DNA of 64,000 nt, taken from Bacteroidia bacterium (GTDB lineage Bacteria > Bacteroidota > Bacteroidia > 2-12-FULL-35-15). Where the stretch lies: the NCBI GenBank assembly GCA_046594925.1, contig JBKJQG010000357.1, forward strand, positions 3,475 to 67,474, read 5' to 3'. This document shows positions 19,818 to 49,690 of the stretch, one piece after another. The notes under the pieces are model-generated. The model was given only the letters and a program-made list of their open reading frames with translations, did no database searches and was not told the DNA's origin. The position numbers and the translations under genes are program-made. How positions within the stretch are numbered: position 1 is the first letter of the stretch; the number at the start of each line of letters is the position of its first letter.

Positions 19818-19855
19818 ACCTCCCCTTTATGCCCTCCCCAAATGGAGAGGAGCGG
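19818..19855. repeat. GC-rich REP-like palindromic element (intergenic copy)
   Basis: cacctcccctttatgccctccccaaatggagaggagcgg. Same CCCCTC(T/C)CC...GGAG(A/C)GGGG family as the elements at 42907, 43301 and 49657. Confidence 0.5.
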
Positions 19856-39732: not shown

Positions 39733-42700
39733 ATGAGTGATATACGGACAGAATTAGAAAGGCGGATACTGGTGATCGATGGTGCAATGGGCACCATGAT
39801 TCAGCAATACAAATTAGAGGAAAAGGATTTTCGTACCAAGCGCTTTGCCGATTGGCACAAAGATCTGAAAGGGAACAATGATCTTTTGTCGATCACTCAA
39901 CCGCACATCATTAAGGCCATTCACAAAGAATACCTGAAAGCGGGAGCCGACATCATTGAGACGAATACCTTCAGTGCCACCACCATCGCCATGGCGGATT
40001 ACGACATGCAGGAATTTGCTTACGAGCTGAATTACGAATCAGCCAAGATTGCCAAAGAGGCAGTATTGGAATATCAAAAAGAGAGCGGAGACACAACCCC
40101 GAAATTTGTAGCAGGCGCTTTTGGCCCGACCAACAGAACACTTTCCCTGTCCCCCAATGTGAACGATCCCGGATTCCGGGCTACCACTTTTGATGAATTG
40201 GTTGTTGCTTATTCCGAACAAGCAAAAGGCTTGATCGAAGGAGGCTGCGACTTACTTTTGGTAGAAACCATTTTTGATACACTTAACGCGAAAGCTGCTT
40301 TGTTCGCCATTCAGAATGTTTGCAAGGAGGAGAACATAAAAATGCCAGTAATGGTTTCCGGAACAATTACGGATGCCAGCGGAAGAACTTTGTCGGGACA
40401 AACCACCGAAGCATTTCTGAACTCCATTTCGCACGTTGATCTTTTGAGTGTTGGTTTGAACTGCGCCTTGGGAGCAAAGGACATGCGTCCTTATTTGGAG
40501 GAACTTTCAGACAAAGCACCGTTTTACGTGAGTGCTTATCCGAATGCCGGTTTGCCCAATCAGTTTGGGGAGTACGATCAGGATGCTCATGAGATGGGAC
40601 ATCAGATAGAAGATTTTTTGCGTGCCGGATTCCTGAACATTGTCGGAGGCTGCTGCGGAACAACTCCAGCTCACATCAAACGCATTGCAGAGTTGGCAAA
40701 AGTTTCCAAGCCGAGGAAGAGACCTGTGGCGGACACGCTGATGCATTTGAGCGGACTGGAACCCTTGACCCTACGTCCTGAAAGTAATTTCATGAACGTG
40801 GGTGAACGAACAAATGTAACAGGTTCTAAAAAGTTCCTGCGATTGATCAATGAAGGAAATTACGAAGAAGCTTTGTCGATTGCCAAAGATCAAGTGGATG
40901 GAGGAGCACAAGTGATTGATGTGAACATGGATGAAGGGATGTTGGATAGTGAAGCCGCCATGACGAAGTTTTTGAATCTTATCGCTTCCGAGCCAGACAT
41001 CAGCAAAGTGCCCATCATGATAGACTCTTCGAAGTGGAGCGTGATCGAGGCGGGATTGAAATGCGTGCAAGGAAAAGCGATCGTGAATTCCATTTCTTTG
41101 AAAGAAGGGGAAGAGAAATTCATTGAGCACGCCAACAAGATAAAACAATACGGCGCGGCTGTAATCGTCATGGCTTTCGACGAGCAAGGCCAGGCGGATA
41201 CTTTGCAACGCAGGATCGACATTTGCAAACGGGCTTACGATGTGCTTGTCGAGAAAGTGAATTTCCCTCCGCAGGATATAATATTCGATCCGAATATTTT
41301 TCCGGTTGCGACCGGAATGGAAGAACACCGCTTGAATGCCCTGGATTTTTTCAATGCAACAAAATGGATCAAAGAAAATCTTCCGCACGCAAAAGTGAGC
41401 GGTGGTGTGAGTAATGTTTCATTTTCTTTCCGTGGGAACGACCACGTGAGAGAGGCGATTCATAGTTCTTTCTTGTACCACGCCGTTAAGAACGGAATGG
41501 ACATGGGAATTGTAAATCCAGCACAGCTACAGGTTTATGACGACATTGAAAAGACTTTGCTGGAGTTGGTAGAAGATGTCTTGCTGAACAGAAGGGATGA
41601 TGCAACGGAAAGATTAGTGGAACATGCAGAATCTTTAAAAGGTGTTACGCGGGAAAAAACTGAAAAGGACGAGGCTTGGAGAAAAGGAACCGTGGAAGAA
41701 AGATTGAGCTATGCTTTGGTAAAAGGATTAGTGGAATACATTGATGTCGATACAGAAGAAGCCAGATTGAAATTGGGCCGACCCTTGCATGTGATCGAAG
41801 GTCCTTTGATGGACGGGATGAATGTGGTGGGTGATTTGTTCGGAAGTGGTAAAATGTTTTTGCCGCAGGTGGTGAAGAGTGCGCGTGTGATGAAGAAGGC
41901 AGTTGCTTATTTGGAACCTTATCTTCAGGCAGAAAAAGAAGCAAACAAATTGGCGGGAATTGTTGGTAACGGAAGAACCAATGCTGGAAAGATCCTGATG
42001 GCGACTGTTAAAGGCGATGTACACGACATCGGTAAGAACATAGTCGGCGTAGTATTGGCCTGTAACAATTATGAAATCATCGATTTGGGTGTAATGGTCT
42101 CTGCAGATAAGATCCTCGAAGAAGCAAAAAAGCAGGAGGTCGACATCATCGGCCTGAGCGGCTTGATCACTCCTTCCTTGGATGAAATGGTGCACGTTGC
42201 CAAGGAAATGGAACGTTTGGGATTTAAAACCCCTTTGCTCATTGGCGGTGCTACCACTTCGAAAGTGCATACTGCCGTAAAGATAGCGCAGAATTATTCC
42301 GGTCCTGTCGTACATGTGAATGATGCAAGTAAGTCCGTTCCCGTTGCCAGCAGCCTGATCTCGGATGAATTGCGTGATGCTTTCATGGCCGATATTACAA
42401 AAGACTATGAGCGTGTTCGTGAGCAAAACAAGAATGCTCAGTCGCAGAATAAATACATTTCCATCGCTGAGGCCCGTGAAAATAAATTTCCGGTCGATTG
42501 GACAAAACGGGAAATCGTAAAACCCAGTTTCATTGGGACTAAAGTCATTACCGATTATCCGATCAATGAGATCGCTGAGTACATTGACTGGACACCGTTT
42601 TTCATTTCCTGGGAGATGAAAGGTTCTTACCCGAAGATCCTGAAAGACCCGACAAGAGGTGAGGAAGCTAGAAAACTTTTTGACGATGCGCAAGCGATGC

Positions 42701-43854
42701 TGAAGAAGATCATTGCTGAAAAATGGTTGCAGGCAAATGCTGTGATCGGAATTTATCCTGCGAAAGCAGTGGGAGATGACATTGAAGTGTATGAGGATGA
42801 AAGCTGCAAAAAATTGGAAACTACATTTCACACTTTGCGTCAACAAACTAAAAAACCAGCAGGCCAATACAATGTAGCACTGTCCGACTTTATGCTTCCC
42901 AAAGACCTCGCCCCCAGCCCCTCTCCGAAGGAGCGGGGAGGCGCTCCGAGATATCATACAACGGATTCAAAGAATTGGAGTCGAAATTTGATTCACGCAA
43001 AGAGTATGCGTAAAGAACCAACCCCTGCTGAGGAAAAATTATGGCATGAGTTACGCAATAGAAAGTTGGAGTCGAAATTCAGAAGACAACATCCAATCGG
43101 ACAATTCATTGCAGATTTTGTTTGCATAGAGCAGAAACTGATCATTGAAGTAGATGGAGAGATACACGATCATCAGAAGGAATATGATGATGGAAGAACG
43201 TATATGCTGGAAGACATAGGATACAGAGTCATTCGCTTTTCCAATGAATCGGTGTTAAAATCGTTTGACGAAGTAATTGCAAAAATCAACGAAGAACTCA
43301 CACCCCTCTCTTTCGGAGAGCGGCCGGGGGTGAGGTCCGAGTGCGACTATATTGGTGCGTTTGCACTAGCAACAGGCTTCGGTATCGACGAACATGTGGC
43401 CCGTTTCGAGAAAGACCACGATGATTATTCAGCCATCATGTTGAAAGCACTTGCCGATCGCTTGGCGGAAGCTTTTGCGGAATTGATGCATAAGAAAGTG
43501 AGAACCGAATTCTGGGGATATGCTAAAGATGAAAATCTTAAAAACGAAGAATTGATCAAAGAGGAATATGCAGGGATTCGTCCCGCTCCAGGCTATCCGG
43601 CCCAACCTGATCATACCGAAAAACCCATTATCTGGAAATTGCTGGATGTGGAGAAGAATACCGGGATGATCTTAACTGAAAGCATGGCCATGGTTCCGAC
43701 GGCTGCTGTAAGTGGCTTGTATTTTGCAAATCCGGCTTCGCATTATTTTGGAATTGGGAAAATTAAGAGGGACCAAGTAGAAGAGTATTCAAAAAGAAAA
43801 GGAATGAGTTTGGATAAAGCTGAACGCTGGTTAGGTCCTAATTTGGCGTACTAA
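39733..43854 (+). CDS. metH: B12-dependent methionine synthase carrying an in-frame ~145-aa DUF559 endonuclease-like insertion in the reactivation domain
   Basis: All four MetH modules are recognisable: Hcy-binding, pterin-binding, the B12 cap/binding DxHxxG-like region ([11 protein letters not shown]), and the AdoMet activation domain (...[15 protein letters not shown]...). The 1,373-aa length compares with about 1,227 aa for canonical MetH. Confidence 0.9.
42907..43333 (+). mobile_element. inserted cassette within metH: REP-like direct repeat, DUF559 (Vsr-like PD-(D/E)XK) module, REP-like direct repeat
   Basis: DUF559 hallmarks: [44 protein letters not shown]......D..R...[14 protein letters not shown]. 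Flanks gcccctctccgaaggagcgggg...ctccgag and acccctctctttcggagagcggccggggg...gtccgag encode SPSPKERGG and PLSFGERPG. Interior GC content is lower than the flanks. The cassette interrupts the segment aligned to E. coli MetH DFVAPKLSGKADYIGAFA. Confidence 0.55.
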
Positions 43855-48197: not shown

Positions 48198-49655
48198 ATG
48201 GAAATGAACAGTCTCAAAAATCAGTTTATTTTAACTTCGGTTCTGGCACTCTTTTGTGCTTCTGAAACAGTTGCCCAAACACCGATGGCGAATCAGACAA
48301 TGACCTTGGAACAATGCATTGATTACGCATTGAAAAACAATATCCAGATCAAACAATCGGAGTTGAATACGGAATTGTCGAAAGTCACCCTCACCCAAAG
48401 TAAAGCTGAACTTTTACCTTCCTTGAATGCAAATGCTTCTCATACTTATAACATCGGGCGGACGGTAGATAGGTTTACCAATCAGTTTGCCGATGCACAA
48501 GTGCTGTCACAGAATTTCGGACTGAGTACCGATGTGAACCTGTTCAGCGGATTTCAAAACATCAACAGCATTCAGCAGAATAAGTTCGCTTACCTGGCCG
48601 GGAAATACGACGTTGAGAAAATGAAGAACGATGTTTCCCTGAACATTGCAACGGCCTACCTTCAGATCTTGTACAGCATGGAGTTGGTTGACAATGCAAA
48701 GAATCAAATGGGCATCACCTCCGCGCAGGCAGACAGAACGAAAATATTGGTTGAAGCAGGATCCATAGCAAGAGGGATGCTCTTAGACATACAATCACAA
48801 TTGGCTTTGGAAGAACTGACTGTAACCAATGCACAGAATCAACTCGATATCGCCTATCTGAACTTAGCGCAGTTGTTGAACATGCCTTCCGCAGAAGGCC
48901 TGACGATAGTGAAACCGGAACTGAATGTCGGCACAGATGCTTTGCTTACCGCCACTCCAACACAGATCTATAATGCAGCCGTTAGCAATCTGCCTGAAAT
49001 AAAAAGTGCTGAATTTAAAGTGAAGAGTGCAGAAAAATCTGTTGATGTTGCCTGGGGTGGAGTGAGTCCACGGTTATCTTTCAGCGCTTCCTATGGAACA
49101 GGGTATTCAGGTGCTAGTCAGCGTTTTCTTACGCCTCCTACGTTTCAGGGATATTCACCGAATGGCGACATCACGTCTTCCGGCGATACGGTTTATTCTC
49201 CAATTTTTTCTTCCGGGACGCTGGAGAAAATTCCTTTTTTTGATCAGTACAACGACAACGTGAACAAATCCTTCGGGTTCTTTTTGACCGTTCCGATCTT
49301 TAACCGCTTACAAACCAAAACAGCGATCGACCGTGCACGCATTCAAAAAATGAATGCAGATCTGACCGTTGAGTCTACGAAATTACAAGTACAGAAAAAT
49401 GTGCAACAGGCCTATGCCGATGCCAGTGCGGGATTGAAAAAATACAATGCTTCTCTGAAAGCAATCGAAGCCATGCAGGAATCTTTTAAATACACGGAGC
49501 AGAAATTCAATGTCGGATTGCTGAACACCAACGATTACAACGATGCCAAGAACAAGCTGATCAAAACACAAAGCGATCTCTTGCAAGCAAAATACGAATA
49601 CGTTTTCAAAACAAAAGTGCTTGATTTTTATCAAGGAAAACCATTGAAATTCTGA
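48198..49655 (+). CDS. TolC-family outer membrane efflux protein
   Basis: Signal peptide, about 480 aa, with two repeated coiled-coil/beta-barrel halves bearing the typical TolC LTLEQCIDYALKNN N-terminal motif. Confidence 0.8.
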   Translation: MEMNSLKNQFILTSVLALFCASETVAQTPMANQTMTLEQCIDYALKNNIQIKQSELNTELSKVTLTQSKAELLPSLNANASHTYNIGRTVDRFTNQFADAQVLSQNFGLSTDVNLFSGFQNINSIQQNKFAYLAGKYDVEKMKNDVSLNIATAYLQILYSMELVDNAKNQMGITSAQADRTKILVEAGSIARGMLLDIQSQLALEELTVTNAQNQLDIAYLNLAQLLNMPSAEGLTIVKPELNVGTDALLTATPTQIYNAAVSNLPEIKSAEFKVKSAEKSVDVAWGGVSPRLSFSASYGTGYSGASQRFLTPPTFQGYSPNGDITSSGDTVYSPIFSSGTLEKIPFFDQYNDNVNKSFGFFLTVPIFNRLQTKTAIDRARIQKMNADLTVESTKLQVQKNVQQAYADASAGLKKYNASLKAIEAMQESFKYTEQKFNVGLLNTNDYNDAKNKLIKTQSDLLQAKYEYVFKTKVLDFYQGKPLKF

Positions 49656-49656
49656 C

Positions 49657-49690
49657 CTCACCCCTAACCCCTCTCTAATGGATAGCGGGA
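49657..49690. repeat. REP-like GC-rich element (intergenic copy)
   Basis: ctcacccctaacccctctctaatggatagcggg shares the CCCCTCTC...AGCGGG motif. Confidence 0.45.

Follow-up and report, generated by a model that had tools for sequence, protein, structure and literature searches.

Rickettsia palindromic elements (RPEs) are short palindromic mobile elements that lie in frame in unrelated housekeeping genes and are translated and compatible with the fold of the host protein (PMC10969869). Inteins with homing endonucleases are in-frame selfish insertions in conserved, often essential proteins; they hold an endonuclease domain, occur sporadically among orthologs and reuse the same sites. Vsr-like homing endonucleases of fractured genes likewise have conserved enzymes as their hosts (Dassa et al. 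2009, PMC2677866), as free-standing open reading frames (ORFs) in group I introns or between split-intein halves; they break the gene, are mostly of phage and have a large separate DNA-binding region. Here we describe a cassette that is fused in frame on both sides to the cobalamin-dependent enzyme MetH of a Bacteroidia bacterium. It encodes a Vsr-like, EDxHD-type PD-(D/E)XK endonuclease (DUF559) between two inverted, GC-rich units of about 35 nt. The cassette lies in a 64,000-nt stretch of DNA (GenBank assembly GCA_046594925.1, contig JBKJQG010000357.1, positions 3,475 to 67,474 of the forward strand), all of which is called the window below. Labels such as P0129 or L004 are our own for individual records.

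We found metH in the window to be a single ORF of 1,373 codons without a stop. Its product scores 2098 bits against NCBIfam NF007024 (cut-off 1497) and 1756 against TIGR02082 (cut-off 1011), and Pfam finds every module of a complete cobalamin-dependent MetH (S-methyl_trans, Pterin_bind, B12-binding_2, B12-binding and Met_synt_B12). The MetH family match is broken into two by the insert alone, and DUF559 (PF04480) at residues 1087-1189 cuts Met_synt_B12 into two stretches. E. coli MetH (3bul, 1msk) reads DFVAPK-LSGKA-DYIGAFA at this position, and in the alignment to it the host residues end with ...DFMLPK and restart with (E)CDYIGAFA. The site of the cassette is a beta-hairpin loop, hypervariable in sequence, of the reactivation domain. 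A DNA alignment with one filled ortholog (L001, whose cassette has the same 145 codons) and two empty ones (L002 and L003) gives an insert of 435 nt or 145 codons (codons 1058-1202), which begins with Asp-Leu and ends with Arg-Ser, followed by a host Glu (junctions K/D...S/E). An earlier note on this DNA had reported the unbroken frame and about 145 additional codons, both of which are borne out; its bounds for the insert (42907-43333) were near-correct, a few bases off those of the alignment (42904-43338). The interior is AT-richer than its surroundings, as had been claimed, if modestly so: the interior has a GC content of 0.39, against 0.452 for metH outside the insert and 0.74 for the repeat arms. 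We found no second DUF559 copy within the window.

The GC-rich flanks had been described as direct repeats. They are real, and they are primarily inverted repeats: a repeat search gave a 35-nt terminal inverted repeat whose arms are 86% complementary. The arms look like direct repeats as well, because each is internally palindromic (direct similarity, 71-76%). The left unit consists of the outer segment GACCTCGCCCC, a 3-nt spacer and the inner hairpin CCCCTCTCC-GAA-GGAGCGGGG, and the right unit of the inner hairpin CCCCTCTC-TTTC-GGAGAGCGG, a spacer and the outer segment GGGGTGAGGTC. With up to 3 mismatches, a 21-mer from the left arm matches at the two arms only in the window, and shuffled sequences gave 0 matches. 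The hairpins of single units are predicted to be no stabler than those of shuffles with the same GC-rich composition (z about -0.5).

DUF559 is the sole ORF of the cassette. The Pfam match covers model positions 5-108 of 109 (E 2.9e-35, 120.9 bits against a cut-off of 20.6), so the family named in the earlier note is the right one; beside it Pfam gives a sub-threshold MTES_1575 match and no transposase family in the cassette. The domain has the motifs FRRQH...ADF...EVDGEIHD...D..R...RFSN. A profile of the inserts matched Protein Data Bank (PDB) entries 3hrl (E 4.5e-30) and I-Bth0305I (3r3p, E 2.3e-5), and with Foldseek the insert superimposes on 3hrl with a template modeling score (TMt) of 0.86 (root-mean-square deviation 2.2 A) and on the catalytic domain of I-Bth0305I with a TMt of 0.74. 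The DUF559 domain is therefore homologous to the catalytic domain of a homing endonuclease, and it shares with the Vsr-like (EDxHD) I-Bth0305I family both the E-x-D...H-D motif (here EVDGEIHD) and the placement in genes for conserved enzymes. Unlike the Vsr-like homing endonucleases, it lies in a chromosomal cassette that is bounded by inverted repeats and has no intron or intein. The free-standing DUF559 protein NGO0050 of Neisseria gonorrhoeae (3hrl) belongs to the same Pfam family and is 42% identical to the insert; such proteins come from independent genes of about 105-165 aa (104 residues in 3hrl) and have no known function, whereas the domain here is a part of MetH with neither start nor stop of its own. 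A PHROGs search returned families of unknown function only.

In 85-86 of 86 embedded copies, the following residues are kept: the D of ADF, the E and D of EVDG, the next H, and a later D and R. The patterns used to retrieve the loci contained FRRQH and EVDG, so the conservation of these two motifs is partly built in; the other residues did not figure in the patterns. The E, D and H of EVDGEIHD are invariant (E-x-D...H-D motif). Ahead of the Pfam domain, an N-terminal extension has 2 residues, Y17 and T19, that are invariant in the alignment of inserts, and a helix is predicted there (model residues 190-205).

An AlphaFold2 model of residues 890-1373 has a mean predicted local distance difference test (pLDDT) score of 86.9, with the reactivation domain and the insert each above 90. 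The score drops below 50 at model residues 174-181 and 304-311, both inside the repeat-encoded peptides, and in a third stretch (396-401) within the host reactivation domain, outside the insert. The host part superimposes on the E. coli reactivation domain with a TMt of 0.93. Both folds are thus kept in the model, with predicted flexible linkers at the repeat-encoded peptides, in agreement with the earlier proposal of a tolerant surface loop.

The segment could in principle be removed before the enzyme is mature, as an intein, as an intron or through ribosome bypass over a stem of the two repeats, and the predicted mRNA fold, in which the two arms pair and loop out the whole insert (z -3.6), is what such a bypass would use. 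We regard removal as very improbable. Pfam gave no Hint or intein match at E up to 0.01, and the K/D...S/E junctions are wrong for splicing, with no Cys/Ser/Thr and no His-Asn; an intein is rejected, and the earlier remark that intein motifs are missing holds. A group I or II intron or another structured RNA is rejected as well, with no Rfam match at E up to 1 in 42500-43700. Moreover, nothing would then keep the segment open and in frame, yet 67 of 80 relatives are. Unlike an intein, the cassette has no splicing domain or splice-junction residues and does have terminal inverted repeats at the DNA level; hence, the insert should stay in the mature protein.

We searched for orthologs with the C-terminal 484 residues of MetH and found many fragments with DUF559 in the same loop and many more without it. 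Coverage was adequate for 122 close orthologs: 108 have an empty loop, 8 have the same insert lineage and 5 have other DUF559 lineages; the closest ortholog (P0129, 92% amino acid identity in the host part) is empty. The loop is hypervariable, with 6-38 aa in empty orthologs. These counts reject family-wide MetH sequence as an account of the segment and establish it as an insertion, as the earlier note had held. At least 4 DUF559 lineages, with differing flanking peptides, occupy this one loop, and MetH holds at least 3 insertion sites: the reactivation-domain loop, a linker and a site before F-x-T-L-R-Q-Q. In a neighbor-joining tree of the host part (294 columns, no support values) the carriers are scattered among empties, and the sister of the window is empty.

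The same loop has the same in-frame architecture in assemblies from JGI, ENA and NCBI (P0121/L001, P0128, P0122, L004 and L005). These assemblies are independent and speak against a chimeric join of metH and a DUF559 gene, by assembly or sequencing; the divergence among carriers is also typical of orthologs. We therefore reject misassembly and give an artefact of this kind next to no credence. The open, in-frame state likewise holds in the window and in the independent assemblies.

Further MetH records carry variants of this arrangement. Two Flavobacterium-type fragments (P0189 and P0190) have two DUF559 inserts each, one in the linker and one before FLTLRQQ in the reactivation domain. P0128 has the full element plus a solo copy of its left end (DLTPNPSPKERGTAP) at residues ~72-100, just before FHTLRQQ, the second reactivation-domain site. 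Because the match of this solo copy runs a few residues beyond the repeat into element sequence, some solo units appear to be remnants of full elements. Some empty loops (P0154, P0176 and P0184) read ...MSPEVLEG(L/R)GAT..., with a faint likeness to the repeat-encoded SPSPLE.GLG.E, and loops of this type may be footprints of lost elements.

The insertion of DUF559 into other genes proved to be general. With nine aligned inserts as the query against a single genome of each species, we found at least 574 relatives of the insert and analyzed the best 80 loci: 67 have an open frame of more than 80 codons on both sides, 6 have one on one side and 7 are free-standing. The insertion behavior that the earlier note had raised as previously unrecognized is thus shared by 67 of the 80 closest genomic relatives. 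Hosts confirmed by Pfam among these 80 loci are LeuRS (two sites), IleRS, a UvrD-like helicase, RecG, chorismate synthase, a Type ISP restriction-modification enzyme, PurQ, TsaB and MurF-Alr, and LeuRS with IleRS forms the largest cluster (48/80 loci). Among 1.84 billion protein cluster representatives there are 23,802 relatives at E up to 1e-3; of the best 150, about 59 have at least 230 aa with DUF559 internal. The same nuclease family occurs with the same repeats in Bacteroidota, Candidate Phyla Radiation (CPR) and cyanobacterial records, and free-standing copies with the same repeats exist too (L038 and L060), as do free-standing relatives in Hymenobacter that are flanked by these repeats. 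Members of the family thus lie mostly inside housekeeping genes.

Element relatives were also seen in records labeled Paceibacterota (L017), Saccharibacteria (L043), Peribacteria (L032) and Limnohabitans, a betaproteobacterium (L063); the RecG of the last groups with Flavobacteriia, and this record may be a binning error. Viral contigs gave only 49 relatives, all distant (at most 49% identity) and mostly free-standing, and a phage origin was rejected on these grounds. The best viral relative (L084, at the end of an IMG/VR contig) is embedded in an ORF like that of a class I aminoacyl-tRNA synthetase, with 239 aa upstream and 700 aa downstream, and is probably host DNA at a provirus boundary and not a phage gene. 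Among the proteins, P0241 (377 aa) consists of three tandem DUF559 domains, and P0242 (1,214 aa) has DUF559 between tandem arrays of repeat-encoded peptides (RGLGDHALRE... and SPREGVGEGSGVRAEL...). In a LeuRS gene of a Flavobacterium metagenome-assembled genome (MAG; L035:4380-4520) the frame slips one base in the G run of the right repeat, which puts DUF559 and the downstream LeuRS out of frame. This is probably a homopolymer sequencing error, the contig name (tig...) hinting at long reads; the alternative is a truly split LeuRS.

The ends are common to elements in different host genes: 27 of them share ACCTCACCCC...GGGGTGAGGT with at most 1 mismatch per end. Among the closest genomic relatives described above, the ends could be placed at 25 loci and agree with these. 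Each unit follows one plan, with ACCTCACCCC, a short spacer and the hairpin CCCTCTCC-N3-4-GGAGAGGG, and two units of about 35 nt stand inverted to each other. The ends double as linker-coding sequence. In one orientation the conserved parts of the unit are stop-free in all three frames, and LTP, PHP and TSP readings all occur; in the other, GVR and GEV are the readings of two open frames, and a TGA stands in the third. The encoded peptides are rich in Pro, Ser, Gly and Glu, and in nearly all embedded copies they resemble (L)TPxPSPxERG or LSPALSKGEG at the N-terminal junction and SPLSFGEGxGVR or SPSPLERGxGGEV at the C-terminal junction.

In 680 kb of relative loci plus the window we counted 129 units, against 1 in shuffles. 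Of the 38 full elements, 35 lie in ORFs of at least 200 aa, as do 38 of the 41 solo units. Hence, like RPEs, solo units and unit pairs occur in frame in housekeeping genes (LeuRS and MurF-Alr), and most copies, full or solo, are in open frames. Unlike RPEs, which are known from Rickettsia and add a short peptide with no enzyme, the units here are GC-rich, are found in Bacteroidota and other taxa, and bracket a complete, conserved endonuclease domain. In one LeuRS ORF of a Bacteroidota MAG (L006:3137-6649) a full DUF559 element is accompanied by three in-frame solo units (TPPSPLEKGLGDEA, LTPALSKGEGDV and SPSPLERARGEA), and L008 is a further example of units in frame inside an ORF. A MurF-Alr ORF (L031:1773-1865) has an in-frame left and right pair with a 9-nt spacer and no DUF559 (PPAPSERGGVLSPLLRRGLGEAG), which looks like a cargo-less derivative resembling a MITE (miniature inverted-repeat transposable element), or possibly a homing target. 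In Carboxylicivirga marina (L055:3489-4470) a DUF559 gene that stands free is surrounded by three 125-nt MITE-like elements, which have the same inverted ends and whose 61-nt interiors are related.

These derivatives bear on the possibility that DUF559 is merely carried, as cargo of MITE- or REP-like units (REP, repetitive extragenic palindromic) that are moved by an unlinked transposase or an enzyme like the REP-associated tyrosine transposase (RAYT). Solo units and left-right pairs that have no DUF559 do exist (the three MITEs of L055 and the MurF-Alr pair of L031), and the units are better conserved than the nuclease ORF: 0.81 against 0.62 at the DNA level (third positions 0.41), a difference that is partly built in because the comparison was preselected on the outer 10-mer. 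The two arms of one element are 0.875 alike, against 0.81 between elements. To our knowledge, no transposase made of a DUF559 domain alone has been described. Nevertheless, cargo with no role would not keep its catalytic-type residues nearly invariant, nor a ratio of nonsynonymous to synonymous differences (pN/pS) of about 0.1 at saturated divergence, and the same nuclease family goes with the same repeats in Bacteroidota, CPR and cyanobacterial records. No candidate transposase turned up beside the elements, though none was systematically searched for. On balance we consider passive carriage unlikely.

The elements resemble transposons with terminal inverted repeats (TIRs) and MITEs in their ends and in their dispersed copies, non-autonomous derivatives among them. 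Unlike in these, no transposase family is encoded by the cassette in metH, and the 27 well-defined elements have no consistent target-site duplication beside them; hence, classical cut-and-paste transposition is unsupported. REP sequences and bacterial interspersed mosaic elements (BIMEs) are similar in that they are GC-rich palindromic units which occur singly or as inverted pairs in many copies. REPs, however, are extragenic and tied to the Y1 (HUH) transposase RAYT, while the units here are mostly in ORFs and tied to a PD-(D/E)XK nuclease.

We compared the DNA of four carriers (the window, L001, L004 and L005; six pairs). Synonymous differences are at or near saturation (pS 0.5-0.9), and nucleotide identity is 0.76-0.82 in the insert and 0.73-0.81 in the host gene. 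In each of the six pairs the DUF559 core has a pN/pS of 0.08-0.12, and the corresponding range for MetH is 0.07-0.21. Because the synonymous sites are near saturation and the identity of the insert tracks that of the host gene, the insertion in this group is an old one, and the protein that it encodes is strongly constrained. Hence, the insertion is not strain-specific, a point the earlier note had set out for checking: it is old and has diverged together with the host gene in several lineages under purifying selection. Recent transposition was rejected also, with no fresh jump among the copies; the most similar inserts in different host genes are about 70% identical.

Beyond this group, host and insert do not always agree. 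At the main site in LeuRS, an identity of 92% between hosts goes with one of 47% between their inserts, and the Paceibacterota LeuRS (L017) is about 46% identical to Bacteroidota LeuRS, yet its insert is 52-59% identical to theirs. The nearest relative of an insert is usually at the same host site, and inserts at different sites reach up to about 70% protein identity in Flavobacteriia and 76% in Hymenobacter. The distribution is not simply vertical.

Domestication would explain the shared history of insert and host differently: the cassette would have come once as a mobile element and now be immobile, kept for a benefit to the cell (e.g. DNA repair or defense) and inherited vertically with repeated loss. 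In four lineages the divergence of the insert does keep pace with that of its host, the insert is selected as strongly as MetH, and the outer segment of the right repeat is lost in L004 (...SFGEGLG/SDYIG), as expected of an immobilized copy. The hosts, however, are functionally unrelated (aminoacyl-tRNA synthetases, MetH, AroC, TsaB, MurF and helicases), which disfavors a role specific to the host. In closely related hosts, the same loop holds different DUF559 lineages, and free-standing copies have the same repeats. A defense system was rejected too, with 0 PADLOC families matched at E up to 0.01. We judge domestication to be rather improbable.

Taken together, the segment in metH is probably one copy of a widespread family of compact mobile DUF559 cassettes that is read through as a protein domain. 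The earlier note proposed a small mobile repeat-DUF559-repeat module that MetH tolerates, in translated form, in a surface loop, and every computationally testable part of this proposal holds. The mechanism we propose is as follows. Because the conserved parts of the units are stop-free, translation would run straight through a cassette that had entered a tolerant surface loop in the correct frame and orientation. The host protein would thereby gain a separately folded nuclease domain on two flexible linkers, and MetH would be made as a fusion protein and stay active; that the fusion is made and functional is suggested by the frame kept open in 67 of 80 relatives. The nuclease, made as part of the host protein, would drive the spread of the element itself in one of two ways. 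By homing, it would cut the empty allele (or a palindromic unit pair), which would then be repaired from the filled copy; this would account for the recurrent use of sites, for the missing target duplications and for the fact that the nuclease is homologous to a proven homing endonuclease. The patchy distribution and the uncoupling of host and insert similarity bear on homing only indirectly. Alternatively, it would act on its own inverted repeats, the unit pair being a palindromic site split by the inserted ORF; the occurrence of the same ends with very different nucleases and hosts, and that of pairs with no cargo, would follow from this. A seat in an essential gene would shield the element from imprecise deletion, as argued for inteins.

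Several points weigh against a mobile cassette, in addition to the limits given above for the tree, the retrieval patterns and the comparison of units with the ORF. The case for nuclease activity, for the putative target site and for the fusion protein is built on sequence and a structural model. No target-site duplication is consistently present, as noted. We found no recent mobility event among the compared copies, whose synonymous sites are all saturated or nearly so, and the parallel divergence of insert and host is also compatible with prolonged vertical descent and losses. Purifying selection may instead stem from an advantage for the host, or from the need for the insert to fold and spare MetH.

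A bolder reading is that DUF559 with GC-rich inverted repeats forms a new class of mobile element, in effect non-splicing inteins: the nuclease would be the mobility enzyme, expressed mainly as an internal domain of housekeeping proteins and recognizing the palindrome of the unit pair or the empty allele, and the repeats would serve both as DNA sites in cis and as stop-free code for linkers. On this reading, much of the DUF559 family, with its 23,802 cluster representatives, would acquire a function. We offer this tentatively, as a possibility somewhat short of an even chance. We found no account of in-frame DUF559 cassettes bounded by inverted repeats in the literature we searched, which left out papers available by subscription only.

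Coordinates of the metH cassette and related features in the window
Feature	Coordinates	Strand	Evidence
metH with insert	39733..43854	+	MetH modules and NF007024 score
Inserted cassette	42904..43338	+	DNA alignment of filled and empty orthologs, and alignment to E. coli MetH
Left terminal inverted repeat unit	42904..42938	+	Repeat search, 35 nt; encodes linker
N-terminal extension of endonuclease	42939..42990	+	Kept in embedded relatives; outside the Pfam DUF559 model
DUF559 / Vsr-like PD-(D/E)XK domain	42991..43299	+	PF04480, PDB profile and Foldseek matches
Right terminal inverted repeat unit	43303..43337	+	Repeat search; encodes linker
Solo repeat unit, intergenic	49654..49689	+	Outer segment and inner hairpin both match
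Degenerate solo repeat unit, intergenic	19818..19855	+	Match of inner hairpin only, weaker

Relatives of the repeats had been claimed at 49657 and 19818. The first is a good solo copy (GACCTCACCCC-TAA-CCCCTCTC-TAAT-GGATAGCGGG). Traced from ~49650, it starts within the TGA stop of the upstream gene (...PLKF-TGA/CCTCACCCC), and it may provide or overlap that stop. The second (ACCTCCCC...GCCCTCCCC-AAAT-GGAGAGG) is weak, with a matching inner hairpin and a degenerate outer segment, and may be a decayed copy; from 19810 on, it lies directly after the TAG stop of one gene and ~16 nt before the next start.

Such fusions are already in the databases, but mis-annotated, and names spill both ways between DUF559 and MetH, which calls for caution in annotation. 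Two proteins of 132-138 aa with DUF559 as their only Pfam domain (P0059 and P0113) are named 5-methyltetrahydrofolate--homocysteine methyltransferase by JGI, and three MetH fragments (P0125, P0195 and P0227) are named 'DUF559 domain-containing protein' by NCBI. Culturable carriers exist for homing and transposition tests: Cellulophaga baltica DSM 24729, Gillisia mitskevichiae DSM 19839, Flavobacterium glaciei DSM 19728 and Hymenobacter gummosus KCTC 52166. The elements would also mark permissive insertion loops in many essential enzymes, which is useful in protein engineering.

If our interpretation is correct, these elements join two known strategies whose combination is absent from the searchable papers. 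Like RPEs, they would survive in essential genes by being translatable, and like intein-borne homing endonucleases they would carry their own nuclease, which, being unspliced, would stay on MetH, LeuRS, RecG and chorismate synthase. This would give the large, uncharacterized DUF559 family a testable role. If they do act as non-splicing inteins, dozens of essential Bacteroidota enzymes would bear an active DNA endonuclease.

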